Positions 19,622 to 34,442 of a stretch of 64,000 bases of DNA are shown here, piece by piece. The stretch lies in assembly GCA_038330085.1 (NCBI GenBank), contig JBBQNP010000002.1, positions 20,537-84,536 of the forward strand, written 5' to 3'. A program made the position numbers and the translations under genes. This DNA is from Planctomycetota bacterium (GTDB lineage: Bacteria; Planctomycetota; UBA1135; GCA-002686595). The notes under the pieces are model-generated. The model was not told the origin of the DNA. It searched no databases and saw nothing but the letters and a program-made list of their open reading frames with translations. The stretch's first letter is position 1. Each line of letters begins with the position of its first letter.

Positions 19622-20066
19622 GTTTCTTGATGTTCCCGAGCTGACCGCTCCACCCGCCCGAGTTCATCCGGAACGCCTCATCCCGACGATTCGGCGGCAA
19701 CCGGTCGAATCCCGACTCCACCACCCTCACCAGCGTGCCCCCGCCTTCTTCCACCAGCGTGAACTCCACCAACGTCATCTCCTCCTTCGAGTAGTCCGCC
19801 TTCCGGTCGACCGCGTACGGATGCCATCGATACGCAAACTCCGTCTCCGGCTTTACCCGCTCGACCACCACTTCGAGCTTCACGCCCTCGTAACTCTTGA
19901 TCGTGAGGCTGCCGATCACCTTCTTGCCCACCACGAACTCTCCGTCTATCACGACGCCGAACCATTCTCCAAACGCCTTGGCGTTCGTGAGCGCGCGCCA
20001 AACCTTCGATCGGGGCGCCTGGATCTGGATCTGTTTCTCGATGCGGTCAGTGCTTGTCTTCGTCAT
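19608..20066 (-). CDS. SRPBCC superfamily protein (Aha1/activator-of-Hsp90-ATPase-like domain)
   Basis: ORF 19608..20105(-), with the start taken at MTKTSTDRIEKQIQIQAPRSKVWRALT (ATG 20066). This is the typical ArsR-associated SRPBCC partner. Confidence 0.75.
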   Translation of the reverse strand: MTKTSTDRIEKQIQIQAPRSKVWRALTNAKAFGEWFGVVIDGEFVVGKKVIGSLTIKSYEGVKLEVVVERVKPETEFAYRWHPYAVDRKADYSKEEMTLVEFTLVEEGGGTLVRVVESGFDRLPPNRRDEAFRMNSGGWSGQLGNIKKHVSG

Positions 20067-20157: not shown

Positions 20158-20464
20158 ACATTCCCCTCGACCTCGCCGATCTCATCGAGGCCACGCACCA
20201 CGCCGCTACCTCATGTCCAATCCGGCCCATGTCCACTCGGGCCCACGTCCAATCCGAAACGATCCAGCCAGAGCCCGCAACCTCACACCGAGCAGCGGGG
20301 TTGTCGGGAAACGCGCGGTGCCAGGCACCCGTCGCGGGAGTACCCGCGGCGGGTTCCAGGCACCACGCGTTCCGCGGGCCGCCGGTGCGTGAACGGCACT
20401 GAGGCCAGGCTGGTCGTTCCCACGCCGCGCGAAAGAGACGGAGCGAGAGATTCCGCATCGGGCG

Positions 20465-20490
20465 CATCCATTCCGAGCTCTGCGTCGAAT
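20465..20490 (+). promoter_or_regulatory. ECF-type promoter candidate GCATCC-N16-CGAAT upstream of the SDR-DUF2867 gene
   Basis: CATCC lies at 20465-20469, followed by a 16-nt spacer and CGAAT at 20486-20490. The same bipartite motif recurs at 22563-22588(-), 22691-22716(+) and 26431-26456(+), and more weakly at 23818-23843(+). Confidence 0.55.
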
Positions 20491-20603
20491 TCCCATTCGG
20501 AGCGCGATTTCGATCGCTGCGTGCGGTCGAACCCTGAGCCGGCCCATTCGCGTCCAACCGCGGGCCCACTGCAGACTATGTGCGCGGCCACGAACGACCG
20601 ACC

Positions 20604-22109
20604 ATGGAATCGTCCCTTCCCCTCCCGTCCGAGCACCGCACGATCCTTTTGACGGGATCGACCGGGTACATCGGCGGAAAGTTGAGGCGCGCGTTCGAAG
20701 AACGCTGCCTCGCGCTGCGCTGCATGGCGCGGCGTCCGGAGTGTCTGGTCGGGCAGGTCGGGCCGCGCACCGAGGTGGTGCGTGGGGACGTGCTCGATCC
20801 CGACTCTTTGTCGACCTCGCTGCAGGGAGTGGACGTCGCTTACTACCTGATCCACTCGATGGGTTCCGACGGCGATTTCGTCGAGAACGATCGCCGCGGC
20901 GCGCGCAACTTCGCACAAGCGGCTCGACGTTGCGGCGTGCGACGCATCGTGTACCTCGGCGGCCTCGGCGATCCTGACGCTGATCTGTCCCCGCATCTGC
21001 GCAGCCGTCACGAAGTGGGCGAGATGCTGCGCTCGACGGGCGTGCCCGTCCTCGAGCTGCGCGCATCGATCGTCCTCGGATCCGGGAGCCTTTCCTTCGA
21101 GTTGATCCGCAGCTTGGTCGAGCGGCTCGCCGTCATGATCACGCCGCGTTGGGTCGACGTCCTGGCGCAGCCGATCGGGATCGACGACCTCGTGGAGTAT
21201 CTGATCGAGTCGCTCGACGTGAACATCGATGGGAGCCGCGTCGTGGAAATCGGCGGACCCGACGTCGTTTCCTACGGCAGCTTGATGCGCGAGTACGCGA
21301 ACCAACGCGGCCTCCGTCGCTACATGATCCGCGTTCCCGTGCTCACGCCGCGGCTGTCGAGCTTGTGGTTGGGTTTGGTGACGCCGCTGTACGCGCGCGT
21401 CGGGCGCAAGCTGATCGAGAGCATCCGACATCCGTCGGTGATCCGCGATCCCTCCGCCATGACGCTGTTCAAGGTACGACCGCGTTCGGTGAGCGCCGCC
21501 ATCGCGAGCGCCCTGCGGGAAGACGAGACGGAACCCACGCGTTGGAGCGACGCGCTCTCTTCGGGGGGTGAGCCCAGGAGTTGGGCCGGCGTCCGCTTCG
21601 GCAACCGCCTGGTCGATTCGCGCACGGTCGTCGTCCCTGTGTCCCCCTCCCGCGCGTTCGACCCGATCCGGCGGATCGGCGGACGCAGCGGGTGGTACGG
21701 GCTCACCTGGCTCTGGTCGGTGCGCGGCTTCCTCGACCTCCTGGTCGGAGGCGTCGGTGTGCGTCGCGGCCGAGCTCATCCCGAACGTGTGCGCGTCGGC
21801 GATGCGCTCGACTTCTGGCGTGTCGAGGAGTTCGAACCCGATCGGCGCATGAAGTTGTTCGCGGAGATGAAGGTGCCTGGACGCGCCTGGCTCGAGTTCG
21901 AGGTCGAGGGCAACGCCGAGAGTTCGACGATTCGGCAGACCGCGATCTTCGACCCGGTGGGGTTGAGCGGTCTTCTCTACTGGTACGGGATCTACCCTCT
22001 GCACGCGCTGGTGTTCGCACGCATGCTGAAGGGCATTGCGAAACGCGCCGTTCGCGACGGTGATCCGGTTCAGCGCCCCATCAACGCTTCGAGCCGTAGC
22101 GTGCGGTGA
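20604..22109 (+). CDS. NAD(P)-binding SDR/NmrA-like oxidoreductase fused to a DUF2867-like C-terminal domain
   Basis: ORF 20580..22109(+), with the start probably at MESSLPLP (20604). It has a Rossmann motif (ILLTGSTGYIGGKL). The C-terminal half (DFWRVEEFEPDRRMKLFAEMKVPGRAWLEFEV) is typical of DUF2867. Confidence 0.8.
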   Translation: MESSLPLPSEHRTILLTGSTGYIGGKLRRAFEERCLALRCMARRPECLVGQVGPRTEVVRGDVLDPDSLSTSLQGVDVAYYLIHSMGSDGDFVENDRRGARNFAQAARRCGVRRIVYLGGLGDPDADLSPHLRSRHEVGEMLRSTGVPVLELRASIVLGSGSLSFELIRSLVERLAVMITPRWVDVLAQPIGIDDLVEYLIESLDVNIDGSRVVEIGGPDVVSYGSLMREYANQRGLRRYMIRVPVLTPRLSSLWLGLVTPLYARVGRKLIESIRHPSVIRDPSAMTLFKVRPRSVSAAIASALREDETEPTRWSDALSSGGEPRSWAGVRFGNRLVDSRTVVVPVSPSRAFDPIRRIGGRSGWYGLTWLWSVRGFLDLLVGGVGVRRGRAHPERVRVGDALDFWRVEEFEPDRRMKLFAEMKVPGRAWLEFEVEGNAESSTIRQTAIFDPVGLSGLLYWYGIYPLHALVFARMLKGIAKRAVRDGDPVQRPINASSRSVR

Positions 22110-22516
22110 TCGAAGATGCGCTTGACATCCGGTCGAACGAGGAACCGGTTGACGAGCGCGCCGCCCAGCACCGAGTAGCGCACGTTGTCGCTGACGCGCG
22201 TGCGATCGCCCAAGTCCTCGAAGCGGTGTTCGTGCACCCAGCGTCGATACGGCCCGCTCAACTGCTCGTCGACGAAGCGGTGTGGCGGATCCCATTCGCG
22301 GATGAGGCTGCGCCAGCGCAACGGCAAGCCGCGCACGCGCAGGCGATATTCGATCAGCGTGCCCTCACCGATCGTCGGCGTCGAGCTCGACACGATGTGG
22401 AAGTGGAGCCAGGGCGGCGTGATCGCTTCCAGGTTGTGAGGGTCCGAAAAGAAGCGGAACACCTCCTCGCGCTTGCGCGGGACAACTTGTTCGCGCTCGA
22501 TCGAGAACTCTTTCAT
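22070..22516 (-). CDS. SRPBCC superfamily protein (polyketide cyclase/dehydrase-like)
   Basis: ORF 22070..22669(-), with the start taken at MKEFSIEREQVVPRKREEVFRFFSDPHNLEAITPPWL (ATG 22516). It converges on and overlaps the SDR gene by 40 nt. Confidence 0.75.
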   Translation of the reverse strand: MKEFSIEREQVVPRKREEVFRFFSDPHNLEAITPPWLHFHIVSSSTPTIGEGTLIEYRLRVRGLPLRWRSLIREWDPPHRFVDEQLSGPYRRWVHEHRFEDLGDRTRVSDNVRYSVLGGALVNRFLVRPDVKRIFDHRTLRLEALMGR

Positions 22517-22562
22517 CGTCGTCAGGGCGTGCCGGCAGCGATGCCTGGCGACGCGGTGAGCT

Positions 22563-22588
22563 GTTCGATCGGGAAACGAATTTGGATG
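22563..22588 (-). promoter_or_regulatory. ECF-type promoter candidate (minus strand GCATCC-N16-CGAAC) upstream of the SRPBCC gene
   Basis: The plus strand reads GTTCG(22563-67)-N16-GGATG(22584-88). The -10 element lies 46 nt upstream of ATG 22516. Confidence 0.55.
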
Positions 22589-22690
22589 CAGGCGTGTCGG
22601 AGTTTTTCCACCTGCGTCCAAGAACGAGATGGGATGCGCGCCATCCGTCATTCGCAGGTTGACCGACAACCACTTTGGTTACGCCGGCTG

Positions 22691-22716
22691 CATCCATTCC
22701 GTCTTCCGCTGCGAAC
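22691..22716 (+). promoter_or_regulatory. ECF-type promoter candidate GCATCC-N16-CGAAC upstream of the fasciclin gene
   Basis: CATCC lies at 22691-95, followed by a 16-nt spacer and CGAAC at 22712-16, 57 nt upstream of ATG 22774. The extended -35 GCATCCATTCCG is identical to the one at 20464. Confidence 0.55.
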
Positions 22717-22773
22717 ACATGTGCACGCCGCATTCAAATCTGGATCGGACACATCATCTCCAAGGAAGCTGAC

Positions 22774-23736
22774 ATGCATCTCACAGCACTCTTCAACCGC
22801 AAATTGGTCAACTGCAATCTGGTCTTCTGCACCCTGGCGCTGGCTTCGGCCTGCGCCGGGACTGGGCAAGACGCGAAGGCCTCGGCCAAGGCCATGCCGA
22901 CGGCCGTCGCGTCCGACACCAAGGACATCGTCGACACCGCGGTCGCCGCGGGCTCGTTCAAGACGCTTGCCGCCGCGCTGAAGGCCGCGGACCTGGTCGA
23001 CACGCTGAAGGGCAAGGGCCCGTTCACCGTCTTCGCTCCCACCGACGCAGCGTTCGCCGCGTTGCCCAAGGGCACGCTCGAAACCCTGCTCGAGCCGAAG
23101 AACAAGGCCACGCTGCAAGCGATCCTCACCTACCACGTCGTGTCGGGAAACATCGCCGCCTCTGACGTCGTCAAGATGAGCCAGGCGGTGACCGTCAACG
23201 GTCAACGCATCGACATCAGCGTCTCGGACGATCTCGTCCACGTCGACAAAGCCAAGGTCACGCAGACCGACATCCGCTGCTCGAACGGCATCATCCACGT
23301 GATCGACGCCGTGATGCTCCCGAGCACGAACGACATCGTCGCCACCGCCATGCAGGCCGGTCAGTTCAAGACGCTGGCCGCAGCACTACAAGCAGCCGGT
23401 CTCGTCGAGGCGCTGAAGGGCAAGGGCCCGTTCACGGTCTTCGCGCCGACGGACGAAGCGTTCGCGCGGCTGCCGGCCGCCACGCTCGCGGATCTCATGA
23501 AGCCCGAGAACAAGGATCGCCTCACCGCCATTCTAGAGTACCACGTCGTCTCCGGCCGCGTCTTCTCCGACGCCGCTGCCGCGGGCGCCACGGTCGAGAC
23601 CCTGCAGGGTGGCAAGCTGACGACTCGCAGCGAAAAGGGTGAGGTGTTCGTGAACGGGGCCCGCGTCGTGAAAGCGGACATCGACGCGTCGAACGGGGTC
23701 ATCCACGTGATCGATTCGGTCCTGTTGCCGAAGTAA
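22774..23736 (+). CDS. Secreted lipoprotein with two fasciclin (FAS1) domains (Mpt70/Mpt83-like)
   Basis: ORF 22675..23736(+), with the start taken at MHLTALFN (ATG 22774), preceded by an AAGGAAG RBS. It has a lipobox (LALASAC). The FAS1 block occurs twice (FKTLAAAL...[15 protein letters not shown]...L...YHVV.G ... NG.IHVID.V.LP). Confidence 0.9.
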
Positions 23737-23817
23737 GCGCCGGCGGATGGAGAGTTCAGAGATGCGCTGGCGCACCCGCGCACCTCTGGCTCTTCATGCG
23801 CGCAGACGGCCGGGAAG

Positions 23818-23843
23818 CAGTCCGCGTTCGATGCTGAGCGAAC
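23818..23843 (+). promoter_or_regulatory. Weaker variant of the same ECF-type motif upstream of the sigma gene (autoregulation candidate)
   Basis: The sequence is CAGTCC...CGAAC (CGAAC at 23839-43). The -35 matches only 3/5 with an N15/N16 ambiguity. It lies 50 nt upstream of ATG 23894. Confidence 0.3.
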
Positions 23844-23893
23844 TAGAGACTGCTTCCCTGTCCCTCCGCGCTACACTGCGCGCTCGACATCGC

Positions 23894-24460
23894 ATGAGCG
23901 ACGTCCAGCCGAACACAGACTCACTCCTGCCGCGCGTGGCGCGTGGAGACGCAGAAGCTGTGCAGGCCTGCATCGCGCGCTACGGCTCGCTCGTGTGGTC
24001 GCTGGCCCGCCGCATGTCGCGCGACGTTGCCGGGCTCGAAGACCTCGTGCAGGAGATCTTCATCGACATCTGGAAGAGCGCCGATCGCTTCGATCCGAGC
24101 CAGTCTTCCGAGACTTCTTTCATCGCGACGATCGCACGACGCCGCGTCATCGACCAGCATCGACGCACCGCGCGCGCGCAAAAGCTCGAGACCATCGACG
24201 AGAGCAGCGCCGTCGCCGAGGAGCCGGGCTTTGCGCAAGTGGACCTCGGTGACGAAGCGCGGCGCGCGAACGCAGCGCTCGACCAACTCAGACCCGAACA
24301 ACGGCGCGTGATCTTGATGTCAGTGGTCGACGGCTTGACCCATGCGGAGATCGTCACGGCAACCGGATTTCCTCTGGGCACGGTGAAGAGTCACATCCGT
24401 CGCGGTCTCGAGGAGACGGTGCGACTTCTGCGCCCCACGGCCGGAGGAGAGCAGCCGTGA
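23894..24460 (+). CDS. sigK: ECF (group IV) RNA polymerase sigma factor, SigK-like by partner and context
   Basis: ORF 23747..24460(+), with the start taken at MSDVQPNTD (ATG 23894). It has sigma-70 region 2 (DLVQEIFIDIWKSADRFD) and region 4 (RRVILMSVVDGLTHAEIVTATGFPLGTVKSHIRRG). Its stop overlaps the GTG of an RskA-type anti-sigma gene. The symbol is assigned by context only. Confidence 0.7.
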   Translation: MSDVQPNTDSLLPRVARGDAEAVQACIARYGSLVWSLARRMSRDVAGLEDLVQEIFIDIWKSADRFDPSQSSETSFIATIARRRVIDQHRRTARAQKLETIDESSAVAEEPGFAQVDLGDEARRANAALDQLRPEQRRVILMSVVDGLTHAEIVTATGFPLGTVKSHIRRGLEETVRLLRPTAGGEQP

Positions 24461-25248
24461 GCACGCGGATCATCGAATGGGACGAGCGCACGTTCGACTT
24501 GGCGCTCGAGGAGCTGACCACTGGGCTCGGGCACGAGGAACGTGACGAGCTCGTCGAGAGCGTGGATGCGGACGAGCTGCGATTGCTCGAGCAATGCGTC
24601 GTGGCGCTCGACCTCGCGGGGCTGCAACGGCTCGACGAACCGCCGGCCGAGTTGATGCTGCGGATCGAGCGCGATGCGCGCGCTCACTTCGCGCTTGCGC
24701 GCCACGCCGACCGGACGGTTCCGATTGCACCGCGTCGTGCGAAGTCGGTCATCAAGGTCAGAACAGCCATCCTGACGGGAACAAGCCTGCTGGCTGCGGC
24801 GCTCCTTCTCGCGTTCCTGTGGCTTCGCGGTGCAACGGATCGGACGAAGGAGCCCGCGGACCGCCGCGACATCCTGCTGGCCGACGCGCGAGACGTCGTG
24901 CGCGCGCCTTGGGTTGCGACCGCGGATCCGTTTGCGGGGGGAGTTCGCGGCGACGTCGTGTGGAGCGGAACACGTCAAGAGGGCTACTTGAGCTTCGCGG
25001 GCCTACCGCGCAACGACCCGCGCGCGAACCAGTACCAGCTGTGGATCTTCGACAAGTCGCGCGCCGAATGGGACGCCAAGCCCGTCGACGGCGGAGTGTT
25101 CGACGTGGGACCCGGTGGAAACGTCGTCGTGCCGATCGACGCCAAGCTCGAGATCCGTCAGCCGGCGCTCTTCGCCGTGACGCTCGAAGCTCCCGGTGGG
25201 GTCGTGGTCTCGAAGCGCGAGCACTTGCTGGCGACCGCCACGCCTTGA
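24457..25248 (+). CDS. rskA: Anti-sigma-K factor RskA-like membrane protein
   Basis: ORF 24457..25248(+), GTG start overlapping the sigma stop (GTGA). It has one TM segment (ILTGTSLLAAALLLAFLWL). The extracytoplasmic RskA signature is present (GYLSFAGLPRNDPRANQYQLWIFD ... FAVTLEAPGGVVVS). Confidence 0.75.
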   Translation: MSTRIIEWDERTFDLALEELTTGLGHEERDELVESVDADELRLLEQCVVALDLAGLQRLDEPPAELMLRIERDARAHFALARHADRTVPIAPRRAKSVIKVRTAILTGTSLLAAALLLAFLWLRGATDRTKEPADRRDILLADARDVVRAPWVATADPFAGGVRGDVVWSGTRQEGYLSFAGLPRNDPRANQYQLWIFDKSRAEWDAKPVDGGVFDVGPGGNVVVPIDAKLEIRQPALFAVTLEAPGGVVVSKREHLLATATP

Positions 25249-25303
25249 CGCCGGGTCGCGGTCTCGCCGGCTTCGTCAGAGCGCACGAAGTCAGGAGCGA
25301 ATG

Positions 25304-26350
25304 TCACGCGCCGACCAGCCGGCGACCGGTCTCGACGGCTTCACCAGCCGAAGCGGCATGGCCGTCCGCGCCGACGCGCTGCCACAGTCCGCTTCCATGC
25401 GCGAACGCCGAACCGCCTACGAGCACGCGCTGTCCGGGCCGCTCGGCACGCAAGGCCTCGATCGTGCGCGCAACCGTCGCACGCTGCTCGTCGAGCGTCG
25501 CGCTCAGCGCCACGAGGTCGGCATCGAACCGCGCGACGAACCCGACCAGGTCCGCGATCGGCACGTCCGCTCCGAGGCAGATCGACCGCCAGCCGTCCAG
25601 TTCGAAGAACGCAGCCACGACCAGGGCACCGAAATCGTGCGCATCGCGCGCGACGGAAGCGACGACGACCGTGCGCCCGTTCGACGGCGCGAGCGGAGCT
25701 TGAGCGACGACGCGCGCCATGATCTTGCGCGTGACGATCGATCCGAAGTGCTCCTCGCCTACGCCGATCTCGCCCTGGTGCCAGCGCCGTCCGAGCTCGC
25801 GTTGCGCCGGCACGAGCACGTGCGTTAGCGCGTCGCGCACCGACAAGCGGCCAGGTCCGATCGCGTCGAGCACGAGTGCGACCGCGCGACGCTCGTCCCC
25901 CGCGATGAGCGCTTCCACGTATGCGTGCGCCAGCCCACCGTGCGGACTGTTTCCCGAAAGCTCGCTGCGCGGCGGCTGGGCTGGGCGGGTCAGCTCCTGC
26001 GCTGCGCGCTCGAAGTACGCGGGCATCGGGGACCACGCCGCTTTCGGGAGAGACTCTTCGAGCACATCGCGCAGATGAGAGAGCTCCGCCTGCAGCATGG
26101 TCGCGGGCATCGCACGCGCGGCGAACGCGTCGCGCGACCACACGACATGCGCGGCGAACAGCTCAGGCGCTTCGTCCTCCAGCGCGGCAGCGAGGCTCTC
26201 GATCTGCCGACGAACGTGCGCGCGCCACGCTTCGAACGCGCCCGATGCGCCGACCTGTGGATCGGATTCCATCCATCGGCTGGTCGCCAAGCCGGCGAAG
26301 CCGTCGGCGCTCGCGCGCAAGAGGGTCGGTGTGAATGCGCTCTGGCCCAT
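25304..26350 (-). CDS. Stand-alone cobalamin (B12)-binding protein, CarH/AerR-like light-sensor module without a DNA-binding domain
   Basis: This is the C-terminal 348 aa of ORF 25304..27208(-), with the start taken at MGQSAFTPTLL (ATG 26350). The part of the ORF upstream of this is antisense to DUF1295. It has a B12-binding_2 helical bundle with Wx9EH (W190...E200-H201, nt 25748-25783). It also has a Rossmann B12 domain with DxHxxG (D236-A-H-D-F-G241, nt 25628-25645). The ~135-aa N-terminal domain is unrecognised. Confidence 0.75.
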   Translation of the reverse strand: MGQSAFTPTLLRASADGFAGLATSRWMESDPQVGASGAFEAWRAHVRRQIESLAAALEDEAPELFAAHVVWSRDAFAARAMPATMLQAELSHLRDVLEESLPKAAWSPMPAYFERAAQELTRPAQPPRSELSGNSPHGGLAHAYVEALIAGDERRAVALVLDAIGPGRLSVRDALTHVLVPAQRELGRRWHQGEIGVGEEHFGSIVTRKIMARVVAQAPLAPSNGRTVVVASVARDAHDFGALVVAAFFELDGWRSICLGADVPIADLVGFVARFDADLVALSATLDEQRATVARTIEALRAERPGQRVLVGGSAFAHGSGLWQRVGADGHAASAGEAVETGRRLVGA

Positions 26351-26416
26351 GGTGTTGCAGGCTTCACCGTGCCCTAAGCCCGTGCGGGCGTCAACGGCGG
26401 GCGGCCGCGAAGCTTT

Positions 26417-27286
26417 TTGACGGACGGGCGCATCCAGGTCGGAGCTTCGCGCGAATGCCAGCGCGTGACCACCTCCGATGCTCTGCTGCCGCTCTTCGGG
26501 CTGTGCGTCCTCGCCCTCGTGATGCTGGCCGGGTGGGCCCGGCAACGGGCGACGCGCAATGCCGGGATCGTCGATGTCCTCTGGGCTGCCGGGCTCGGCG
26601 GGCTGGCGTTGCTGTACGCCGCGCTCGCTTCGGGTTGGTTGCCGAGGCGCGTGCTCGTGGCGGTGCTGGTGGGCGCGTGGTCGTTGCGCCTGACGCTGCA
26701 CCTCGCAGCACGTGTGCGGCGCGAGCGCGAGGACGGTCGGTACGCCGAGATGCGCGCGCGCCTCGGACAGCGTTTCGATCGCACCATGCTGTGGTTCTTC
26801 CAGGCCCAAGCTCTGCTGGCGGTGCTGTTGTCGTTGGCGTTCCTGGTTCCGTGCGCGGCGAACAACACGGGCTTCACCGCGCTCGACGTGCTCGCCGTTG
26901 TTGTTTGGATCGTCGCACTCGTCGGCGAGAGCATCGCCGACCGCCAGCTGCGCGATTGGCGCGCCGATCCGTCGCACGCGGGCCGCACTTGCCGCGCTGG
27001 ACTGTGGCGGTATTCGCGCCACCCCAACTACTTCTTCGAGTGGCTGCACTGGGTCGCGTACGCGTTCCTCGCGACCGGGCTCTCGTACGGCTGGGTCGTT
27101 TGGCTCGCACCGGCAGCGATGTTGTTCCTGATCGTGCGCGTCACGGGCATTCCTCCGACCGAGGCGCAAGCGATCCGAAGCCGCGGCGACGACTACCGCG
27201 CGTACCAAGCGACGACGAGCGCGTTCTTCCCGGCGCCGCCGAAAGTCCAGTCGGTTCGATCAACCCACGTGAAGCAGGCCCCATGA
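26417..27286 (+). CDS. DUF1295 family membrane protein (steroid-5-alpha-reductase / ICMT-like fold)
   Basis: ORF 26417..27286(+), TTG start. The true start may be GTG 26465 (see the promoter entry). It is multi-TM and has the C-terminal signature GLWRYSRHPNYFFEWLHWVAYA. Its stop overlaps the next ATG (ATGA at 27283-86). Confidence 0.8.
   Translation: MTDGRIQVGASRECQRVTTSDALLPLFGLCVLALVMLAGWARQRATRNAGIVDVLWAAGLGGLALLYAALASGWLPRRVLVAVLVGAWSLRLTLHLAARVRREREDGRYAEMRARLGQRFDRTMLWFFQAQALLAVLLSLAFLVPCAANNTGFTALDVLAVVVWIVALVGESIADRQLRDWRADPSHAGRTCRAGLWRYSRHPNYFFEWLHWVAYAFLATGLSYGWVVWLAPAAMLFLIVRVTGIPPTEAQAIRSRGDDYRAYQATTSAFFPAPPKVQSVRSTHVKQAP
26431..26456 (+). promoter_or_regulatory. ECF-type promoter candidate GCATCC-N16-CGAAT upstream of / inside the 5' end of the DUF1295 ORF
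   Basis: CATCC lies at 26431-35, followed by a 16-nt spacer and CGAAT at 26452-56. This places the -10 downstream of the TTG (26417) that opens the longest ORF and 9 nt upstream of an in-frame GTG (26465). Confidence 0.5.
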
Positions 27287-28353
27287 AGCTCGCGAACCGT
27301 CTCGTCGACCAAGGCTTCGTCCCCGAAGTGCTGCTGCGCAGCGGCATTCGCAGCTTGTTGCGCAGGAGGTTGCGCGACGAGAGTGCGCGCTTCGGTCACG
27401 ACACCGAAAGCGTGATGCGCACGTGGGTGGAGCACATGCGCCAAAGCCCGATCGCGTTGGTGCCGGAGCTCGCCAACGAGCAGCACTACGAGGTGCCGGC
27501 GGAGTTCTTCCGGCTCGTGCTCGGCCGGCGCCTCAAGTACAGCAGCGCGTACTTCGCGAGCAGCACCGACACGCTCGATCAGGCCGAAGAAACCATGTTG
27601 GCGCTGACGGCCGAGCGCGCGGGCCTCGAAGACGGTCAGGACGTGCTCGAGCTGGGTTGCGGATGGGGCTCGCTCACGCTGTGGCTGGCCGAGCGACATC
27701 CGAAGAGCCGCATCGTCGCCGTCTCCAACTCGGCTACACAGCGCGAGCACATTCTGGAGCGGGCGAGCGAACGCAGCCTTCGCAACGTCACGGTCCTCAC
27801 CGCCGACATGAACGATCTCAAGATCGACGGGCAGTTCGATCGCGTCGTGTCGGTCGAGATGTTCGAGCACATGCGCAACTGGGAGCGGCTCCTGGGACGC
27901 GTCGCCAGATGGCTGCGGCATGACGGTCGGCTCTTCCTGCATGTTTTCGCGCACCAACGCTTCGCGTACGCATTCGAGGAACGCGACGACTCGGACTGGA
28001 TGAGCCGGCACTTCTTCAGCGGCGGGATGATGCCCTGCCATGGAATGGTCGAGCGCCTGGATGTGCCGTTCGAGAGCGTCGCGAGCTGGATCGTTCCTGG
28101 AACTCATTACGCGCGCACCGCGGAGGCCTGGTTGCAAAACCTCGAAGCGCGGCGCGCGGCGGTGCTCGAGCTCTTCGAACGCACGTACGGAAGCGATCGA
28201 GCCGAGCTCTGGTACCAGCGTTGGCGCGTGTTCTTCCTGGCGTGTGCCGAGCTCTTCGGCTTTCGGGGCGGTTCGGAGTGGATCGTCTCGCACGCACTGT
28301 TGCGTCCGCTGTCGTCCCAGATCCTGCTCGACTCGCAGAAGCGCGCGCGATGA
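27283..28353 (+). CDS. Cyclopropane-fatty-acyl-phospholipid synthase family SAM-dependent methyltransferase (copy 1, short form)
   Basis: This lies within ORF 26335..28353(+), with the start taken at MKLANRLVDQG (ATG 27283). It has the CFA/mycolic-acid methyltransferase motifs (HYEVPAEFFRLVLGRRLKYSSAYF; VLELGCGWGSLTLWLA; SVEMFEHM). Confidence 0.85.
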   Translation: MKLANRLVDQGFVPEVLLRSGIRSLLRRRLRDESARFGHDTESVMRTWVEHMRQSPIALVPELANEQHYEVPAEFFRLVLGRRLKYSSAYFASSTDTLDQAEETMLALTAERAGLEDGQDVLELGCGWGSLTLWLAERHPKSRIVAVSNSATQREHILERASERSLRNVTVLTADMNDLKIDGQFDRVVSVEMFEHMRNWERLLGRVARWLRHDGRLFLHVFAHQRFAYAFEERDDSDWMSRHFFSGGMMPCHGMVERLDVPFESVASWIVPGTHYARTAEAWLQNLEARRAAVLELFERTYGSDRAELWYQRWRVFFLACAELFGFRGGSEWIVSHALLRPLSSQILLDSQKRAR

Positions 28354-29603
28354 AGATCGCCGTCGTCGGGACCGGTGTCGCTGGGCTGGTCGCAGCGCAC
28401 AGGCTGCATGGCGAGCACGACGTCACCGTGTACGAGGCGGGAGATCGGATCGGCGGTCACGTCAACACCGTGGACGTCGCGACCGACACGGGCACCGTGG
28501 CGATCGACACCGGCTTCATCGTCTTCAACCGCAAGACCTACCCGCGCTTCTGTGCACTGCTCGAGGAACTCGGCGTCGCTTCTCAGCCAAGCGAGATGAG
28601 CTTCTCCGTTTCCTGCGAGAAAAACGGCCTCGAATACAACGGAACGTCGTTCGACGGACTCCTGGCGCAGCGCACGAACGCACTGCGACCGGCATTTTGG
28701 CGCATGGTCCGCGACATCCTGCGCTTCTACCGCGAAGCACCCGCGCTGCTGGCCGTCGATGACGACGACCTGACTCTCGGCACGTTCCTGGAGAGCCGAC
28801 GCTACTCGCGCGAGTTCATCGAGCATCACCTGGTGCCGATGGCCGCGGCGGTTTGGTCGTCGGATCCCCGCGACGTGCGCGCGATGCCGGTGCGCTTCCT
28901 GGTGCAGTTCTTCCACAACCACGGCTTCCTGCAGGTCGACGATCGTCCGCAGTGGCTGGTCGTGCGCGGCGGTTCGCGCCAATACGTCGACGCACTGGTC
29001 GCTCCGTTTCGGGATCGGATCCGGCTACGCACTCCGGTCGTGCGCGTCGAGCGCAGCTTCGACAGCGTGCGACTTTGGACGAAGTCCGGAGGCGACGAGA
29101 CGTACGACCGCGTCGTCCTGGCGACGCACGCTGACGAGAGCCTGCGCATGCTGTCCGACGCGACGCGGCTCGAGCGCGAAGTGCTGGGCTCGTTCGGATG
29201 GCAGCGCAACGAGGTCGTGTTGCACACCGACACAGCGCTCATGCCGCGCAAGCGCCGCGCCTGGGCGAGTTGGAACTACCACTTGGTGGATCCGCCTTCG
29301 AGCCTGCCCACGGTGACGTACTGGATGAACAACCTGCAGGGCCTCACCGCGGATCAGCAGTACCTGGTCACGTTGAACCGCACGGCGGCCATCCGTCCCG
29401 ACAAAGTGTTGAGAAGCTTCGTCTACCACCACCCGGTCTTCTCGAGCGCGACCCTGCGCGCCCAACGTCTGCACGCTGACATCGACGGCGCAGGCGGCGT
29501 CCACTTCTGTGGCGCGTACTGGGGCAACGGCTTTCACGAGGACGGTGTCGCCAGCGCGCATGCTGTCCTCGCGCACGTCGAACGAACGGTGCTGGCGAGA
29601 TGA
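28350..29603 (+). CDS. FAD/NAD(P)-binding oxidoreductase (amine-oxidase / phytoene-desaturase-like)
   Basis: This lies within ORF 28221..29603(+), with the start taken at MKIAVVGTGVAGLVAAHRL (ATG 28350, ATGA overlap). It has a dinucleotide-binding GxGxxG followed by YEAGDRIGGH. Confidence 0.85.
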   Translation: MKIAVVGTGVAGLVAAHRLHGEHDVTVYEAGDRIGGHVNTVDVATDTGTVAIDTGFIVFNRKTYPRFCALLEELGVASQPSEMSFSVSCEKNGLEYNGTSFDGLLAQRTNALRPAFWRMVRDILRFYREAPALLAVDDDDLTLGTFLESRRYSREFIEHHLVPMAAAVWSSDPRDVRAMPVRFLVQFFHNHGFLQVDDRPQWLVVRGGSRQYVDALVAPFRDRIRLRTPVVRVERSFDSVRLWTKSGGDETYDRVVLATHADESLRMLSDATRLEREVLGSFGWQRNEVVLHTDTALMPRKRRAWASWNYHLVDPPSSLPTVTYWMNNLQGLTADQQYLVTLNRTAAIRPDKVLRSFVYHHPVFSSATLRAQRLHADIDGAGGVHFCGAYWGNGFHEDGVASAHAVLAHVERTVLAR

Positions 29604-29659
29604 AGAGCGAGATGAAGAGTGCGCTGAAGAGTGCGATGAAAAGTGCGATGAGGAGCGCG
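29600..29659 (+). repeat. 12-nt tandem repeat x5 at the 5' end of the DUF1365 gene
   Basis: The units are ATGAAGAGCGAG, ATGAAGAGTGCG, CTGAAGAGTGCG, ATGAAAAGTGCG and ATGAGGAGCGCG. Four of the five units begin with an in-frame ATG. Confidence 0.8.
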
Positions 29660-30421
29660 ATCTACGAGGGCACCGTCTACCACGACCGCCGCGAGCCGCG
29701 GCCGCATGCGTTCGAGCACCGGCTGTTCATGATGTACATCGACCTCGACGAGCTGCCCGAGCTCTTCCAAGGTCGCTGGCTGTGGTCCGCGAGCCGAAAG
29801 GCGCTCGCGTGGTTTCGGCGAGACGACTACCTGGATCCGCAAACCGCCGATTTGCGCGAGGCCGTGCGCGCGCGCGTGCAGGACGAGCTCGGACGCAGGC
29901 CGGCGGGCGCAGTGCGCGTGCTCACCCACCTGCGGACGTTCGGCTACGTCTTCAATCCGGTCACGTTCTACTACTGCTTCGACGCGCGCGACGAGCTCGA
30001 CGCCATCGTCGCCGAGATCACCAACACGCCGTGGGGCGAGCGTCATGCCTACGTTCTCGACGCGCGCGGCGAGCAGGGAACGGCCGAGATCACCTGGCGC
30101 TTTCCGAAGGCGTTTCACGTCTCGCCCTTTCACGCGATGGACGTCGAGTACGAGTGGCGCTTCAGCGCGCCCGGCGCAGAGCTCGGGGTGCACATGACGA
30201 ACCTCGCTGCCGGCCGGCCGATGTTCCACGCCGGCTTCGCCGCGCATCGACGTGCGATCACGCGTGCGGGCCTGGCGTGGGTGCTCGTGCGTCATCCACT
30301 GCACACGTTGCGCTTGCACGCGGCCATCTACTGGCAGGCTGCGCGCCTTTTGCTGAAGCGCGTGCCCACGCACGCGCATCCACAGCATTCCGTCGTTCCA
30401 ACAGGGAGCCGGGCATCATGA
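29600..30421 (+). CDS. DUF1365 family protein
   Basis: ORF 29600..30421(+), ATGA overlap with the preceding gene. The core is SAIYEGTVYHDRREPRPHAFEHRLFMMYIDLDEL ... FGYVFNPVTFYYC. It has an unusual N-terminal (M/L)(K/R)S(A/E) x5 repeat. Confidence 0.85.
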   Translation: MKSEMKSALKSAMKSAMRSAIYEGTVYHDRREPRPHAFEHRLFMMYIDLDELPELFQGRWLWSASRKALAWFRRDDYLDPQTADLREAVRARVQDELGRRPAGAVRVLTHLRTFGYVFNPVTFYYCFDARDELDAIVAEITNTPWGERHAYVLDARGEQGTAEITWRFPKAFHVSPFHAMDVEYEWRFSAPGAELGVHMTNLAAGRPMFHAGFAAHRRAITRAGLAWVLVRHPLHTLRLHAAIYWQAARLLLKRVPTHAHPQHSVVPTGSRAS

Positions 30422-31704
30422 GCGACGAAGGTTTGATCGCCGGACTGACTGGTGCGCGTGCAGTGGTTGCCCGGGGCGAGCGCGTCGCACGTCCTTCCAT
30501 CGCGGCGCGGCTCGTGTTTTCACGGCTCGCTCGATTGTCGTCGGGTTCACTGATCGTGCACGAGGGCGGACGAAGGCACGTGTTCGGGAGCCCGGATCCC
30601 AGCCTTCCGCCGGCGATCGTGCACGTTCACGACGCGCGCTTCTGGTCCGCGGTCGCGAAGCGCGGCACCGTCGGCGCGGGAGAGGCGTTCGCGCAGGGCT
30701 GGTGGTCTAGCGAGGACATCGTCGCGCTCGTGCGTCTCTTCGTTCGCAATCGGGATTCGATGACGGCCCTCGAGGGCGGGCTCGCGCGGCTCTCGCGTCC
30801 CGTGCTCGATTTGTTCCATGCGCTCCGCCGCAACACGCGCAAGGGCAGCCGCGCCAACATCTCGGCGCACTACGACCTCTCGAACGAGTTCTTCGCGCTG
30901 TTCCTGGACGACACGATGACCTATTCGTGCGGCCTCTTCGAACGGCCGGAGTCGAGCTTGCGTGAAGCGTCTCTGGCCAAGATCGACCGCATCTGCGCTC
31001 ACCTGCAGCTCTCATCCGCCGACCACCTGCTCGAAATCGGCACCGGTTGGGGTGCGCTTGCGATCCACGCCGCGCGCGAATACGGCTGTCGCGTGACGAC
31101 GACGACGATCTCGCGGCGGCAACACGATGTGGCCGCGCAGCGCATTCGCGAGGCCGGCCTCGAGGGGCGCGTGACGCTCTTGTTCGAGGACTACCGCAAC
31201 CTCGAAGGCACCTACGACAAGCTCGTCTCCGTCGAGATGATCGAGGCAATCGGCCATCAGTACTTCGACGAGTTCTTTCGGCGCTGCTCGGCGTTGTTGC
31301 GCCCCGAAGGGCGGATGTGCCTGCAGTCGATCACGATCGCGGATCAGCACTATGCGTCCGCGCTGCGCTCGGTCGACTTCATCCAGCGCCACATCTTCCC
31401 GGGCGCGTGCATCCCTTCGGTGACGGCGTTGTGCTCGTCGATGACGGCTTCGAGCGACCTGAGGCTCGTGCACATGGATGACATCGGCCCGCACTACGCG
31501 CGCACCCTCTCCGAATGGCGGCAGAACCTGCTCGCTCATCGCGACGAAGCGCGTGCCCTGGGGTTCGGCGACGAGTTGCTGAGGCTGTGGGACTTCTACT
31601 TCGGCTACTGCCAAGGGGGGTTGGAGGAAAGGCAGCTCAGCACGGTGCAGATGGTGCTCGAGCGTCCGCTGGCACGGCCCGCATTGTTTCCTTCCGCGAA
31701 TTGA
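30418..31704 (+). CDS. Cyclopropane-fatty-acyl-phospholipid synthase family methyltransferase (copy 2, long form)
   Basis: This lies within ORF 29509..31704(+), with the start taken at MSDEGLIAGLTG (ATG 30418, ATGA overlap). Motifs present are ISAHYDLSNEFFALFLDDTMTYSCGLF, LLEIGTGWGALAIHAA, SVEMIEAIGHQY and FYFGYCQGGLEERQL. Confidence 0.9.
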   Translation: MSDEGLIAGLTGARAVVARGERVARPSIAARLVFSRLARLSSGSLIVHEGGRRHVFGSPDPSLPPAIVHVHDARFWSAVAKRGTVGAGEAFAQGWWSSEDIVALVRLFVRNRDSMTALEGGLARLSRPVLDLFHALRRNTRKGSRANISAHYDLSNEFFALFLDDTMTYSCGLFERPESSLREASLAKIDRICAHLQLSSADHLLEIGTGWGALAIHAAREYGCRVTTTTISRRQHDVAAQRIREAGLEGRVTLLFEDYRNLEGTYDKLVSVEMIEAIGHQYFDEFFRRCSALLRPEGRMCLQSITIADQHYASALRSVDFIQRHIFPGACIPSVTALCSSMTASSDLRLVHMDDIGPHYARTLSEWRQNLLAHRDEARALGFGDELLRLWDFYFGYCQGGLEERQLSTVQMVLERPLARPALFPSAN

Positions 31705-31819
31705 ACGCTCGAAACACGCGAGAACGATGGTGTCGTGTCGTCAGGATCCGCGCTCGCACGCGCGCGATGATCGAACTGATTCGTACTGAGTGGACGACCG
31801 TGCCGTGACCGCCGCGACG

Positions 31820-32353
31820 ATGAAGAAGTTCGCGAACTTCGCCCTGTACCAAGGCGCCTGGTTCGTCGCCGTCTCGTGTGCCGCGCGAGGCGACGTGTGG
31901 ACGGGGCCGGCAGCGATGCTGGTCGTGGTGATCGTGCACCTGGCGCTCGTGCCCGATCGCATGCGCGAGCTGCGCTTTCTGTTTGTCGTCGGCCTTTTCG
32001 GAACGATCGCGGACAGCGCGCTCGCCGCACTCGGCGTCCTCGCGTATCCGAGTTCGCACGCGAGCTGGACGAGCATCGTCGCGCCACCGTGGATCATCGC
32101 GCTGTGGATCGGGTTCGCGACGTTGCCGCGCTTCTCGCTCGCTTGGCTCGCACACAGGCCCGCGCTCGCCGCGCTGCTCGGCGCCGTGGGTGGCCCGCTG
32201 TCCTATGCCGCGGGTATCCGCCTGGGCGCCGTCGCGGTCGGCTCGCAACCCGTGCTGACGTGGCTTGCGCTGTCGGCGGAGTACGCGCTCGCCACACCTT
32301 TCCTGCTGTGGCTCGCGCCGCGGGCGGACACACGCGAAAAGGCCGCTGTTTAG
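31820..32353 (+). CDS. DUF2878 family membrane protein
   Basis: ORF 31790..32353(+), with the start probably at MKKFANFALYQGAWFVAV (31820). It has 4-5 TM segments. This family commonly ends CFA-synthase/DUF1365 clusters. Confidence 0.7.
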   Translation: MKKFANFALYQGAWFVAVSCAARGDVWTGPAAMLVVVIVHLALVPDRMRELRFLFVVGLFGTIADSALAALGVLAYPSSHASWTSIVAPPWIIALWIGFATLPRFSLAWLAHRPALAALLGAVGGPLSYAAGIRLGAVAVGSQPVLTWLALSAEYALATPFLLWLAPRADTREKAAV

Positions 32354-32442: not shown

Positions 32443-33126
32443 ATGACACGCATCGACCTCTACACGACTGCCCACAAAGGGCTCCGCTCACTCCTCTTCG
32501 AGTCCGCCCAGACCGTCGCGCGCTGCGGAGGCTTGCGCCGCGACGAGATCCGGGCATCGGCCGCGATCGTGCGTCGGACGATCGACGTGCTGCGAGCCCA
32601 CGCAGGGCGTTGTGACGATCATCTGTTGCCCCCCATCGCGCGGCTCTCGCCCGTTCTCGCGGCCGAAATCGAGACGCGCTTCGACCGTTGCGCAGGCTTC
32701 GAGCAGGAGATCGCACGCACGCTCGATCGTCTGGAGGCCTCGACAAGCGGTGAGCGCGCATCGCTCGTGCAGCGGTTGCACAGGGAGATGGGCCGGCTCC
32801 TCCGGGAGCACCTCCGGCGCATGGAGCTCGAAGAGCAGCACGCGAACCGCATCTTGTGGGCGCATCTCGACGATGGAGAGCTGGCTGCGCTCGAGCGACA
32901 GATGTTCCGCGCCATGTCCCGCGCGGATGCCGTCGAGTGGTTCGCCATCCTCTTTGCCGCCGCGAGCCTGGACGAGATGGCCGCGCTGTTGGGACGACTG
33001 CAAGCGTACATCCCCCTCGAGTTGACGTCCGCGCTCTGCGCAGCGGCGAGCGTGCGCTGCGACGAGTCGCGCTCGAACGCGAACACGGCTCGCACGAGCG
33101 GTGATGCTGAGGAGCGCGTGGCGTGA
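32443..33126 (+). CDS. Hemerythrin-like (HHE cation-binding) domain protein
   Basis: ORF 32443..33126(+). It is an alpha-helical protein with spaced His/Glu pairs (TAHKGLRSLLFE, HAGRCDDHLL, REHLRRMELEEQHANRILWAHLD). The assignment is by pattern only. Confidence 0.45.
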   Translation: MTRIDLYTTAHKGLRSLLFESAQTVARCGGLRRDEIRASAAIVRRTIDVLRAHAGRCDDHLLPPIARLSPVLAAEIETRFDRCAGFEQEIARTLDRLEASTSGERASLVQRLHREMGRLLREHLRRMELEEQHANRILWAHLDDGELAALERQMFRAMSRADAVEWFAILFAAASLDEMAALLGRLQAYIPLELTSALCAAASVRCDESRSNANTARTSGDAEERVA

Positions 33127-34442
33127 CGATCTTCACGAGTGCGATCGCCGCCCGATGGTTGGGGTGGGCGCGCAACCACGTCCTCCATCACGCCGTTGCG
33201 CTGGGCATCGCGCTCACCGCCACGGCGTGGGTGCCGCTCGGTGAAGCGGACCCCTTGTCCGATACGATCCCCGCGCGCCTCGCGGACACGGGTCTGTACG
33301 CCGACTTCGCGGCGCGCACGCTTGCACCCGGCGTGCTCCCGTTCGAGCCGCAGTACCCGCTGTGGACGGACGGCGCGACGAAGCGCCGCTGGATTCGACT
33401 GCCGCCGGGCGCTTCGATCGACGCGACGAACCCCGACGTGTGGTCGTTCCCGCGCGGAACACGCTTGTGGAAGGAGTTCTCGTTCGGACACCGCATCGAG
33501 ACGCGCCTGATGCTGCGCGGCGGCGACGGGACGTGGCGCTTCGCGACGTACGCTTGGAGCGCGGACGAGAGCGACGCCGTGCTCGCGCCTGAGCGCGGCG
33601 TCAACGCAGCGTGCGAGTCGCAGCCGGGCAAGCCGTTCGACATTCCCGCGCGCACCGACTGCAACGCGTGTCACCTCGCGGGACCGAACGTCGTGCTCGG
33701 CTTCAGCGCGCTGCAGCTCTCGAGCGACCGTGACCCGCTCGCTCCCCACGCGCAAGTACCCGCAGCCGGAGCGGTCGACCTGTCCGACCTCGTGCGGCGC
33801 AACCTCGTGAAGAACCTGCCGCGCGCGCTGGTCGGGACACCGCCGCGCATCGCGGCAGCGTCGCCGATCGAGCGCGCTGCTCTCGGTTACCTGCACGGCA
33901 ACTGCGGCATGTGTCATACCGACTCGGGGCAGCTCGCGAGCCTGGACCTCGATCTGTGGACGTCGTTCGCTGGGATGTCCATCGAGCCTCAGACCCCCGA
34001 CACCAACGCGCGCCGAACGACGAACGGCCATGCGAGCCGCTTCGTTTGTGACACGAGCACCCATGCGCTGCGCAGCGCCTCTGCGCTGCGCGTGTCGCCC
34101 GGTGATCCCGATGCGAGCGTGCTCTTGCGACGGATGGCTTCGCGTCAGCCGCTCTCGCAGATGCCGCCGCTCGGCACGCACGTCGCCGACGCGGAAGCGC
34201 TCGAGCTCGTGACGCAGTGGATTCGATCGCAGTCCGGCGCCGTGCGCGTCACGGATCGTACGACGCAGGCCGATGCCGGAGCGCGGTCCGCAGGTGATCC
34301 GTGGGTGCCTGAATCACGCCGTGAGTACTCCCGCGGCGGGTACGTGGCACCGACGGATGTCACCGACACCAACTCACTCGACGTCTGCCAGACATCGAGC
34401 TCTTCCCAAGCACCCTTGATTTCCAAGACTCCGAAAGACTGA
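33123..34442 (+). CDS. Exported protein with two heme c binding motifs (putative diheme c-type cytochrome)
   Basis: ORF 33123..34442(+), GTG start overlapping the previous stop (GTGA). It has an N-terminal TM/signal segment, then CNACH and CGMCH (CXXCH x2). The conserved-looking N-terminal block is LADTGLYADF...FEPQYPLWTDGATKRRWIRLPPG. Confidence 0.7.
   Translation: MTIFTSAIAARWLGWARNHVLHHAVALGIALTATAWVPLGEADPLSDTIPARLADTGLYADFAARTLAPGVLPFEPQYPLWTDGATKRRWIRLPPGASIDATNPDVWSFPRGTRLWKEFSFGHRIETRLMLRGGDGTWRFATYAWSADESDAVLAPERGVNAACESQPGKPFDIPARTDCNACHLAGPNVVLGFSALQLSSDRDPLAPHAQVPAAGAVDLSDLVRRNLVKNLPRALVGTPPRIAAASPIERAALGYLHGNCGMCHTDSGQLASLDLDLWTSFAGMSIEPQTPDTNARRTTNGHASRFVCDTSTHALRSASALRVSPGDPDASVLLRRMASRQPLSQMPPLGTHVADAEALELVTQWIRSQSGAVRVTDRTTQADAGARSAGDPWVPESRREYSRGGYVAPTDVTDTNSLDVCQTSSSSQAPLISKTPKD

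Follow-up and report, generated by a model that had tools for sequence, protein, structure and literature searches.

We analyzed a 64-kb stretch of DNA from a Planctomycetota bacterium (contig JBBQNP010000002.1), referred to here as the window, which contains an island of genes around an extracytoplasmic function (ECF) sigma factor of the SigK type and its RskA-type membrane anti-sigma factor. On one side of this pair are genes for a short-chain dehydrogenase/reductase (SDR)-like domain fused to DUF2867, for an SRPBCC protein, and for a secreted fasciclin protein. On the other side are a gene for a candidate photoreceptor and a six-gene operon for lipid modification (Table 1). Four copies of one bipartite sequence element, P1 to P4, stand in front of the SDR-DUF2867, SRPBCC, and fasciclin genes and the lipid operon. 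We consider it likely that P1 to P4 are promoters read by the adjacent sigma factor, which would be held inactive by the co-translated anti-sigma factor. Pfam searches upheld all the gene identities given in the original prediction, which had been made from the DNA letters of the window (SDR-DUF2867, SRPBCC, fasciclin, ECF sigma, RskA, DUF1295, two CMAS genes, amine oxidase, and DUF1365). The two CMAS genes scored 6e-82 and 1.5e-43. The fasciclin product is probably a lipoprotein, as its translation starts with a putative signal peptide and a lipobox-like N terminus (...LASAC).

Table 1. Promoters, repeat, and genes of the sigma factor island (positions in the window)
Feature	Position	Strand	Details
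P1, ECF-type promoter GCATCC-N16-CGAAT	20464-20490	+	113 nt 5' of SDR-DUF2867 start
P2, ECF-type promoter TGCATCC-N16-CGAAC	22563-22589	-	46 nt 5' of SRPBCC start; back-to-back with P3
P3, ECF-type promoter TGCATCC-N16-CGAAC	22690-22716	+	57 nt 5' of fasciclin start
P4, ECF-type promoter GCATCC-N16-CGAAT	26430-26456	+	ends 8 nt 5' of DUF1295 GTG
Perfect 11-bp inverted repeat GGGAAGCAGTC / GACTGCTTCCC	23812-23858		arms 23812-23822 and 23848-23858; inner GTTCG/CGAAC stem
AHSA1/SRPBCC	19608-20066	-	
NAD(P)-binding SDR/NmrA-like domain fused to DUF2867	20604-22109	+	Pfam DUF2867 1.8e-34, NAD_binding_10, NmrA
SRPBCC (polyketide cyclase/dehydrase-like)	22070-22516	-	Pfam Polyketide_cyc2 8e-10
Secreted protein, two FAS1 (fasciclin) domains	22774-23736	+	Pfam Fasciclin 8.5e-84, two stretches
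ECF sigma factor, SigK-like, 188 aa	23894-24460	+	Pfam Sigma70_r2 2e-19, Sigma70_r4_2 2e-14
RskA-type single-pass membrane anti-sigma	24457-25248	+	Pfam RskA_C 2.4e-12, residues 112-249
Photocobilin-type photoreceptor candidate, 348 aa	25304-26350	-	Pfam B12-binding_2 and B12-binding
Six-gene lipid-modification operon	26465-32353	+	Pfam; four 4-nt start/stop overlaps
DUF1295	26465-27286	+	Pfam
CMAS-type methyltransferase	27283-28353	+	Pfam
FAD amine-oxidase-like, UfaD-like	28350-29603	+	Pfam Amino_oxidase 1.5e-30
DUF1365, UfaO-like	29600-30421	+	Pfam DUF1365 1e-81
CMAS	30418-31704	+	Pfam
DUF2878	31820-32353	+	Pfam

The pattern CATCC-N16-CGAA[CT] has exactly four matches on the two strands of the window, where 0.42 were expected, and four matches were never reached in 100 dinucleotide-preserving shuffles (0/100). 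All four are preceded by G. The longer pattern GCATCC-N16-CGAAY, present four times, had a mean of 0.15 in first-order Markov simulations, with a maximum of 2 and no run out of 1,000 reaching four. The window copies read (T/C)GCATCC-N16-CGAA(C/T), with cores at 20465-20490(+), 22563-22588(-), 22691-22716(+), and 26431-26456(+). P2 and P3 form an inverted pair, and the 12-mer GCATCCATTCCG is common to sites 1 and 3 (P1 and P3), in line with the 12 nt that the original prediction had seen shared by two -35 regions. A search comparing hits between and inside genes had also been proposed; within the 64-kb window it gave these four exact hits, all intergenic, each sharing the strand of the gene that follows and standing 8-113 nt ahead of the start codon, and none inside genes. 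To judge coding potential we used GC content at the three codon positions (GC1/GC2/GC3), which is about 0.65/0.45/0.83 in real genes, and read a flat pattern as non-coding. By this measure all four sites fall outside coding DNA, and the spacer that contains P1 (20067-20603) is non-coding.

Looser searches did not extend the set. Scanning the window for GCATCC-N15-17-CGAA gave no site beyond the four, and relaxed scans, which allowed a 15-17-nt spacer, any base following CGAA, and one mismatch, turned up only matches in coding regions or on the wrong strand, at chance frequency. Two such matches were discounted, one within the DUF1365 coding region (30376-30402) and one antisense in a hemerythrin gene (32904-32930). 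Scans of 19.5-33.5 kb for sigma-70 promoters and intrinsic terminators found nothing above shuffle expectation, and an Rfam scan of the whole window found no match, hence no riboswitch such as a cobalamin riboswitch. As a separate observation, three tandem 16-nt repeats (CATGTCCAATCCGGCC, CATGTCCACTCGGGCC, and CACGTCCAATCCG) stand at 20212-20256, about 210 nt 5' of P1, within the 537 nt of non-coding DNA that separate the AHSA1-like gene from the SDR-DUF2867 gene; they may be a regulator-binding array.

We then compared the island with 80 loci collected via the sigma protein (relatives with 34-74% identity), which span Planctomycetota, Gemmatimonadota, Latescibacterota, Pseudomonadota, Acidobacteriota, and Actinobacteria. 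Orthologues of the window genes were found by tblastn, and the best GCATCC-N15-17-CGAAY match was scored in the 250 nt around each start. At zero or one mismatch, the motif was found at 13 of 15 fasciclin loci, where the mismatch was mostly a CGAAG or CGAAA ending, and at all five DUF1295 loci. It was also found at three of six SRPBCC loci, with no mismatch in L002, L003, and L008, and at one of two SDR-DUF2867 loci (TGCATCC-N16-CGAAG in L008, 12 nt 5' of the start). Because such orthologues elsewhere carry the motif, co-regulation of the SDR-DUF2867 and SRPBCC genes with the fasciclin and DUF1295/CMAS genes, as first proposed, is plausible. The remaining genes (both CMAS genes, amine oxidase, DUF1365, DUF2878, rskA, and the B12-binding photoreceptor gene) stood at two to four mismatches, which is background, with the sole exception of the first CMAS gene in L026 (one mismatch).

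The related sites also refine the motif. Among 56 non-window sites, at positions outside the search pattern, T precedes GCATCC in 47, a purine follows CATCC in 53, and C precedes CGAA in none, giving the fuller consensus TGCATCC(R)-N15-(D)CGAA(Y). The 16-nt spacer is fixed in length and unconserved in sequence. The 1.23 Mb of loci hold 95 CATCC-type matches, about four times the window-derived chance rate, clustered within a few kb of the sigma gene in at least four phyla. A census of 65 open reading frames downstream of a motif in the related loci counted 28 fasciclins, 12 sigma genes, 4 DUF1295 genes, and 3-4 SRPBCC genes, and also two alpha/beta hydrolases, a conserved lipoprotein (twice), a DUF1731 epimerase, a DUF4345 protein, and a pyrroloquinoline quinone (PQQ)-propeller protein. 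In loci of Gemmatimonadota, Microbacterium, and Actinoplanes, sigma genes, fasciclin genes, or both are preceded by TGCATCC-N16/17-CGAAY. Phylogenetic footprinting thus argues strongly that this conserved, orientation-specific, bipartite ECF-type promoter, as the original prediction had interpreted it, is tied to this sigma family and its RskA-type partner, because in Gemmatimonadota and Actinoplanes the motif directly precedes the orthologous sigma gene, often back-to-back with a fasciclin promoter.

Back-to-back promoters are a frequent arrangement of divergent targets, with -35 boxes that abut or overlap (e.g., GGATGCATCC). Examples are L009 1778-1829, L011 7341-7398, L036 748-804, and L047 9862-9918, and P2/P3 of the window is a looser form.

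P4 heads the lipid operon, whose gene order is the same in L002 and L008 and whose internal genes have no motif in the window. The DUF1295 start codon follows the CGAAY exactly 8 nt later in the window (GTG at 26465), L002, L008, and L009; the CGAAY-to-start regions are 26456-26467 in the window, 12539-12550 in L002, 11948-11959 in L008, and 1778-1766 in L009. With extrapolated starts, 2-8 nt separate the end of the motif from the start codon in each of the five DUF1295 orthologues, among them those of L003 and L004. Conservation of the DUF1295 protein begins at that start codon, and several other planctomycete targets have a gap of 8-11 nt between motif and start. Since an ECF -10 element ending at about -9 places +1 on the start codon, this spacing suggests that the lipid operon mRNA is leaderless.

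The operon has a counterpart in Rhodobacter sphaeroides, where RSP1091 (UfaD), RSP1090 (UfaO), and the methylase UfaM make furan fatty acids as part of the sigmaE/ChrR singlet-oxygen regulon (PMC7380195), and where activation of sigmaE requires RSP1091 as well as RSP2144, a CMAS homologue (PMC3546557). The amine-oxidase, DUF1365, and CMAS genes of the window follow one another in an order like that of RSP1091-1090-1089, and the first two appear to correspond in kind and order to UfaD and UfaO, as a family-level match. By analogy, the probable products of the operon are methylated or furan fatty acids, which would give protection from photo-oxidative damage.

The likeness to sigmaE-ChrR (R. sphaeroides; Pseudomonas syringae PSPTO_1043/1042) extends to the promoter. 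The chromatin immunoprecipitation sequencing (ChIP-seq)-derived consensus for this sigma type, TGATCC-N16-CGTA (PMC5507510), is very similar to TGCATCC-N16-CGAA, and its targets are of the same kind (RSP1091/UfaD, RSP1090/UfaO, a CMAS homologue, and an SDR; PMC7380195, PMC5507510). Intermediate forms occur in two related loci. L081, from a gammaproteobacterial metagenome-assembled genome (MAG), and L084 carry the variant TGAATCC-N16-CGAA, in L081 as TGAATCC-N16-CGAAC, and L084 also has TGCATCC-N16-CGTA upstream of its amine-oxidase gene. The variants stand at 3301-3328(-), 5906-5933(+), and 9086-9114(+) in L081 and at 4134-4160(+) and 11900-11926(-) in L084, and they bridge the window motif and the sigmaE/ChrR consensus. 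The two systems also differ. The -10 element is CGAA here and CGTA there, and none of the window sites matches TGATCC-N16-CGTA exactly; the anti-sigma factor here has RskA_C only, whereas ChrR combines a zinc anti-sigma domain with a cupin; and a fasciclin target is present here.

Instead of a promoter, a repeated element of this kind might be a dispersed repeat or the operator of some DNA-binding regulator. The inverted arrangement of P2 and P3 would fit such a reading, as would the palindrome GGATGCATCC that abutting -35 boxes create in some relatives, which could pass for the binding site of a dimer. We find this very hard to reconcile with the bipartite structure and its fixed 16-nt spacer of unconserved sequence, the strict orientation toward the downstream gene, the single non-palindromic copies at P1 and P4, the conserved 8-nt distance to start codons, and the close resemblance to a ChIP-seq-defined ECF promoter (PMC5507510). 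ECF promoters are the far better description of P1 to P4.

The sigma factor itself is of the group-4 type, with regions 2 and 4 only, and its homologues are mostly 187-188 amino acids long and come almost entirely from Planctomycetota MAGs. In a search of the Protein Data Bank (PDB), its best solved relative was Mycobacterium tuberculosis SigK (4NQW, 1.5e-18), followed by R. sphaeroides RpoE (2Q1Z, 5e-16), the latter another point of likeness to sigmaE-ChrR. The rskA start overlaps the sigma stop by 4 nt, one hydrophobic segment precedes the RskA_C domain, and rskA directly follows the sigma gene in relatives too. Searched against the PDB, the anti-sigma factor gave no informative match and no match to ChrR. 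RskA-type anti-sigmas mark the ECF214/18/19 clade (PMC7826278). Judged by protein family and target classes, the system is a planctomycete member of the known and widespread SigK/RskA ECF type, with the expected kinds of target.

In mycobacteria, both the sigK locus itself and the fasciclin-type antigens Mpt70/Mpt83 are under the control of SigK (PMC7509140, PMC4105308, PMC9861118), which drives mpt70/mpt83 and the promoter of the Rv0449c operon (PMC7509140, PMC9861118). The island resembles this SigK-RskA system (Rv0445c/Rv0444c; ECF18/ECF19 clade) in several ways. An RskA_C anti-sigma factor is encoded immediately downstream of the sigma factor, a fasciclin gene (two FAS1 domains, behind P3) is among the putative targets, and sigK is likewise linked to an operon of the amine-oxidase/DUF1365/CMAS/DUF1295 type with a sigma-dependent promoter at Rv0449c (PMC7509140). 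TGCATCC-N16/17-CGAAY also occurs in the actinobacterial loci L056-L060, L068, L071, and L073; the comparison with the M. tuberculosis promoter rests on such loci and on secondary papers. The parallels to SigK (Mpt70/83; Rv0446c-Rv0449c) and to the furan-fatty-acid operon of Rhodobacter, drawn in the original prediction, were thus borne out (PMC7509140, PMC9861118, PMC7380195, PMC5507510).

Other traits set the island apart from mycobacterial SigK, beginning with the host phylum, Planctomycetota. The fasciclin gene is directly upstream of the sigma gene here and in a separate locus there. The lipid operon lies downstream and is separately transcribed, so that read-through from it would not provide autoregulation. 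SDR-DUF2867 and SRPBCC are extra targets, a photocobilin-type gene is embedded in the locus, and the lipid operon mRNA appears to be leaderless. The redox cysteine pair of M. tuberculosis SigK (C133/C183) is also absent: the planctomycete sigma factor has a single cysteine, Cys26, and an alanine aligns with C133. Redox sensing by the sigma factor itself is therefore unlikely here, as read from the alignment.

An unrelated peculiarity concerns the anti-sigma gene of L008 (10549-10794), where the rskA homologue ends after about 80 residues, so that it keeps the cytoplasmic anti-sigma part and lacks both the membrane part and RskA_C; the convergent photoreceptor gene directly adjoins it. Either the anti-sigma factor of this relative is truly truncated and soluble, or the short gene is an artefact of assembly or frameshift.

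The region in front of the sigma gene requires separate treatment. The motif had originally been placed at five positions; four were exactly as described, and the fifth, at 23818-23843 ahead of the sigma gene, reads CAGTC-N16-CGAAC and is a two-mismatch match. The window has 171 two-mismatch matches, about one per 375 nt, against 139 ± 11 expected by chance, and because such matches occur at about chance level, the fifth site carries no statistical weight. If the site were nonetheless a weaker promoter, the regulon would have five units and the sigma gene would directly and positively autoregulate. The CGAAC is intact with a C-A-x-x-C remnant 16 nt upstream, the distance of 52 nt to the sigma ATG is plausible, many ECF sigmas autoregulate, and the motif does precede the sigma gene in Gemmatimonadota and Actinoplanes. 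We regard direct autoregulation through this site as improbable, however, since the site is not conserved in planctomycete relatives. When 66 upstream regions of sigma orthologues were scanned for their best site, the close planctomycete relatives stood at two to four mismatches, apart from a lone one-mismatch site in L011. The aligned fasciclin-sigma spacers of six relatives are poorly conserved, and 5' of a shared TAGAG(T/A) box they show GCTGG, CCTGA, and GTTGC where the window has CGAAC. The site is also wholly enclosed by the perfect 11-bp inverted repeat at 23812-23858, and both its half-sites are arms of inverted repeats within that palindromic hairpin. Finally, in M. tuberculosis the promoter just before sigK is reported not to be SigK-regulated, and autoregulation runs via the distal Rv0449c promoter (PMC7509140), a further likeness to the island, where an ECF motif next to the sigma gene is unsupported. 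With a chance-level match, no conservation, and a position inside an inverted repeat, we rejected the fifth site as an ECF promoter and retain P1 to P4.

The inverted repeat is a candidate hairpin or operator rather than a supported ECF promoter, and could act as an attenuator, an mRNA-end stabilizer, or an operator. In the window, a long hairpin directly follows the fasciclin stop (spacer 23747-23858), and the fasciclin-sigma spacer folds at -84.5 kcal/mol (z = -4.9 versus shuffles). Close relatives have a terminator-like hairpin with a T-rich tail directly after the fasciclin stop. The apparent upstream extension of the sigma reading frame (23747-23893) has a flat GC-position pattern and is non-coding.

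Elsewhere among the planctomycetes, exact motifs that feed the sigma gene precede the upstream gene of a probable operon, namely a DUF4345 gene in L011 and a PQQ-propeller gene in L006, and in Pirellulales-type loci they precede single-domain fasciclin genes. In the window, a basal promoter of its own probably serves sigma-rskA, and any feedback would depend on some transcription reading through from P3. The TAGAG(T/A) box occurs upstream of the sigma gene in four of seven otherwise unalignable spacers (window 23845-23850, L001, L002, and L003), with a CGATG block upstream of it in the window, L001, and L002. We note the box as a candidate -10 element of a sigma-independent basal promoter.

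Several of these findings weigh against assigning P1 to P4 to the adjacent sigma factor. The sigma gene lacks the motif across the planctomycete clade, and the autoregulatory link is borrowed from other phyla. The hairpins after the fasciclin gene, strong in the window and terminator-like in relatives, argue against efficient read-through from P3. The motif is present in only about half of the SRPBCC and SDR-DUF2867 orthologue loci. The missing redox cysteine pair counts here too, although it is typical and not obligatory for the SigK-type group, as 94% of ECF18 sigmas and 56% of ECF19 sigmas have it (PMC7509140). Planctomycetes also have numerous ECF sigmas (PMC7826278), and the motif could therefore be read by a paralogue encoded at another place in the genome, leaving the adjacent sigma a mere neighbor. 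Such a paralogue would fit the lack of a motif at the sigma gene in this clade, and it would fit L082 and L084, whose motif-bearing lipid operons have no sigma gene within 8 kb. We give this explanation little credence, because across at least four phyla the motif clusters within a few kb of this sigma (in loci fetched through the sigma protein), because it directly precedes the orthologue of this sigma in other phyla, and because the target set, fasciclin and an Rv0449c-type operon, is that of SigK (PMC7509140). We therefore continue to favor the adjacent sigma factor as the reader of P1 to P4.

The original prediction had taken the whole stretch to be one stress regulon whose full membership could be read from its promoters. 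This goes too far on two counts: the B12-binding photoreceptor gene lies mid-island, with no ECF motif found upstream of it in the window, and a 64-kb window cannot show full membership.

The product of the photoreceptor gene contains W190-x9-E200-H201, which is the Wx9EH motif of CarH, and the ligand His238, all invariant or nearly invariant in 25 homologues. Its family profile matches the photocobilin SasPcob (8J2W) over both the cobalamin module (1e-44) and the bilin-binding globin domain (1.3e-8), and likewise covers both domains of AbDPcob (8J2Y). The globin domain was assigned by profile search: over positions 10-103, the profile aligns with the C-terminal globin domains of 8J2W (1.3e-8) and 8J2Y (1.9e-6) and has a weak match to allophycocyanin, and two homologues have a match to the phycobilisome-protein family PF00502 in Pfam. 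The AlphaFold2 model (predicted local distance difference test score, 92.9) has an all-helical N-terminal domain and a CarH-like C-terminal module, and the cobalamin-binding domain aligns with CarH/8JBS at a target-normalized template modeling score of 0.8. Foldseek with the full model recovered the B12 module only, owing to a domain order that is permuted with respect to 8J2W: here the globin precedes the B12 module, the reverse of the solved photocobilins. We propose the protein as a candidate standalone photoglobin plus CarH-like B12 receptor of the photocobilin type, with a C-terminal B12 module and no output domain. Photocobilins that stand alone and end in a B12 domain have been described as a group and are proposed to work via protein-protein contacts; this globin-then-B12 architecture has been described already, and its function has not (PMC10979010, PMC8717448).

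The genomic position of the photoreceptor gene is conserved. In every one of the 10 close planctomycete loci with sufficient sequence, it adjoins rskA. Outside the planctomycetes it is linked to sigma/rskA or to amine-oxidase-DUF1365-CMAS operons (L081, L082, and L084). In the gammaproteobacterial MAG it lies on the same strand 36 nt after rskA, in a locus that also has DUF1295, fasciclin, and sigma genes and a divergent amine-oxidase-DUF1365-CMAS operon, and in two further lineages it is near motif-bearing operons of this kind. The L084 gene is itself preceded by TGAATCC-N16-CGAAA, 8 nt before the ATG. A more distant homologue in a spirochaete has a GGDEF/histidine-kinase context instead. Photocobilins have so far been reported from two-component, STAS/SpoIIE, and GGDEF contexts, whereas here the context is an ECF sigma/anti-sigma pair and a Ufa-like lipid operon.

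The inducing signal of SigK-RskA in mycobacteria is still called obscure, and the mpt70/mpt83 homologues of Mycobacterium kansasii are light-induced (PMC9861118). Photoreceptor synteny, these light-induced homologues, and the response of sigmaE to singlet oxygen together hint at light or photo-oxidative stress as the most likely input of the sigma switch, a link that we infer from context. Tentatively, and as a possibility that we rate well below even, the photoreceptor may sense light and pass the signal to the SigK/RskA-type switch or to the Ufa-like enzymes under its control, in which case the ancestral role of the regulon would be a response to light or photo-oxidative stress.

Taken together, the island can be pictured as follows. 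An activating signal would release the sigma factor from its RskA-type membrane anti-sigma factor. Sigma region 4 would then bind the -35 element TGCATCC(R), and region 2 the -10 element CGAA(Y), 16 nt downstream. This would switch on four units, namely SDR-DUF2867, SRPBCC, the secreted two-FAS1 fasciclin, and the six-gene membrane-lipid operon, the last transcribed as a leaderless mRNA from its GTG. Sigma-rskA would have no ECF promoter of its own in this clade, and positive feedback would arise only via read-through from the fasciclin promoter, atop the separate basal promoter.

The lipid operon is followed on the same strand by a hemerythrin-domain gene and a PSCyt1-like gene (planctomycete cytochrome c motif) at 32443-34442, which may or may not be co-transcribed with it. 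No motif was found for these two genes, and their synteny is kept in no relative among the loci, so they were left out of the island.

For Planctomycetota, a phylum with almost no defined promoters or regulons, these results supply a clean promoter motif, validated by comparison, together with a minimal regulon of a SigK-type ECF sigma factor. They indicate that the target set of fasciclin and Ufa-like lipid operon, seen with SigK of mycobacteria and sigmaE of Rhodobacter, is old and extends over several phyla. To us, the most interesting features beyond this are the conserved photocobilin-type gene and, after it, the leaderless promoter architecture, from which we predict that a planctomycete makes leaderless transcripts. 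Through the embedded photocobilin-type gene, the input of SigK/RskA becomes a concrete, testable hypothesis, namely light, and if the light-sensor reading is true, it would give a biological role to standalone photocobilins.

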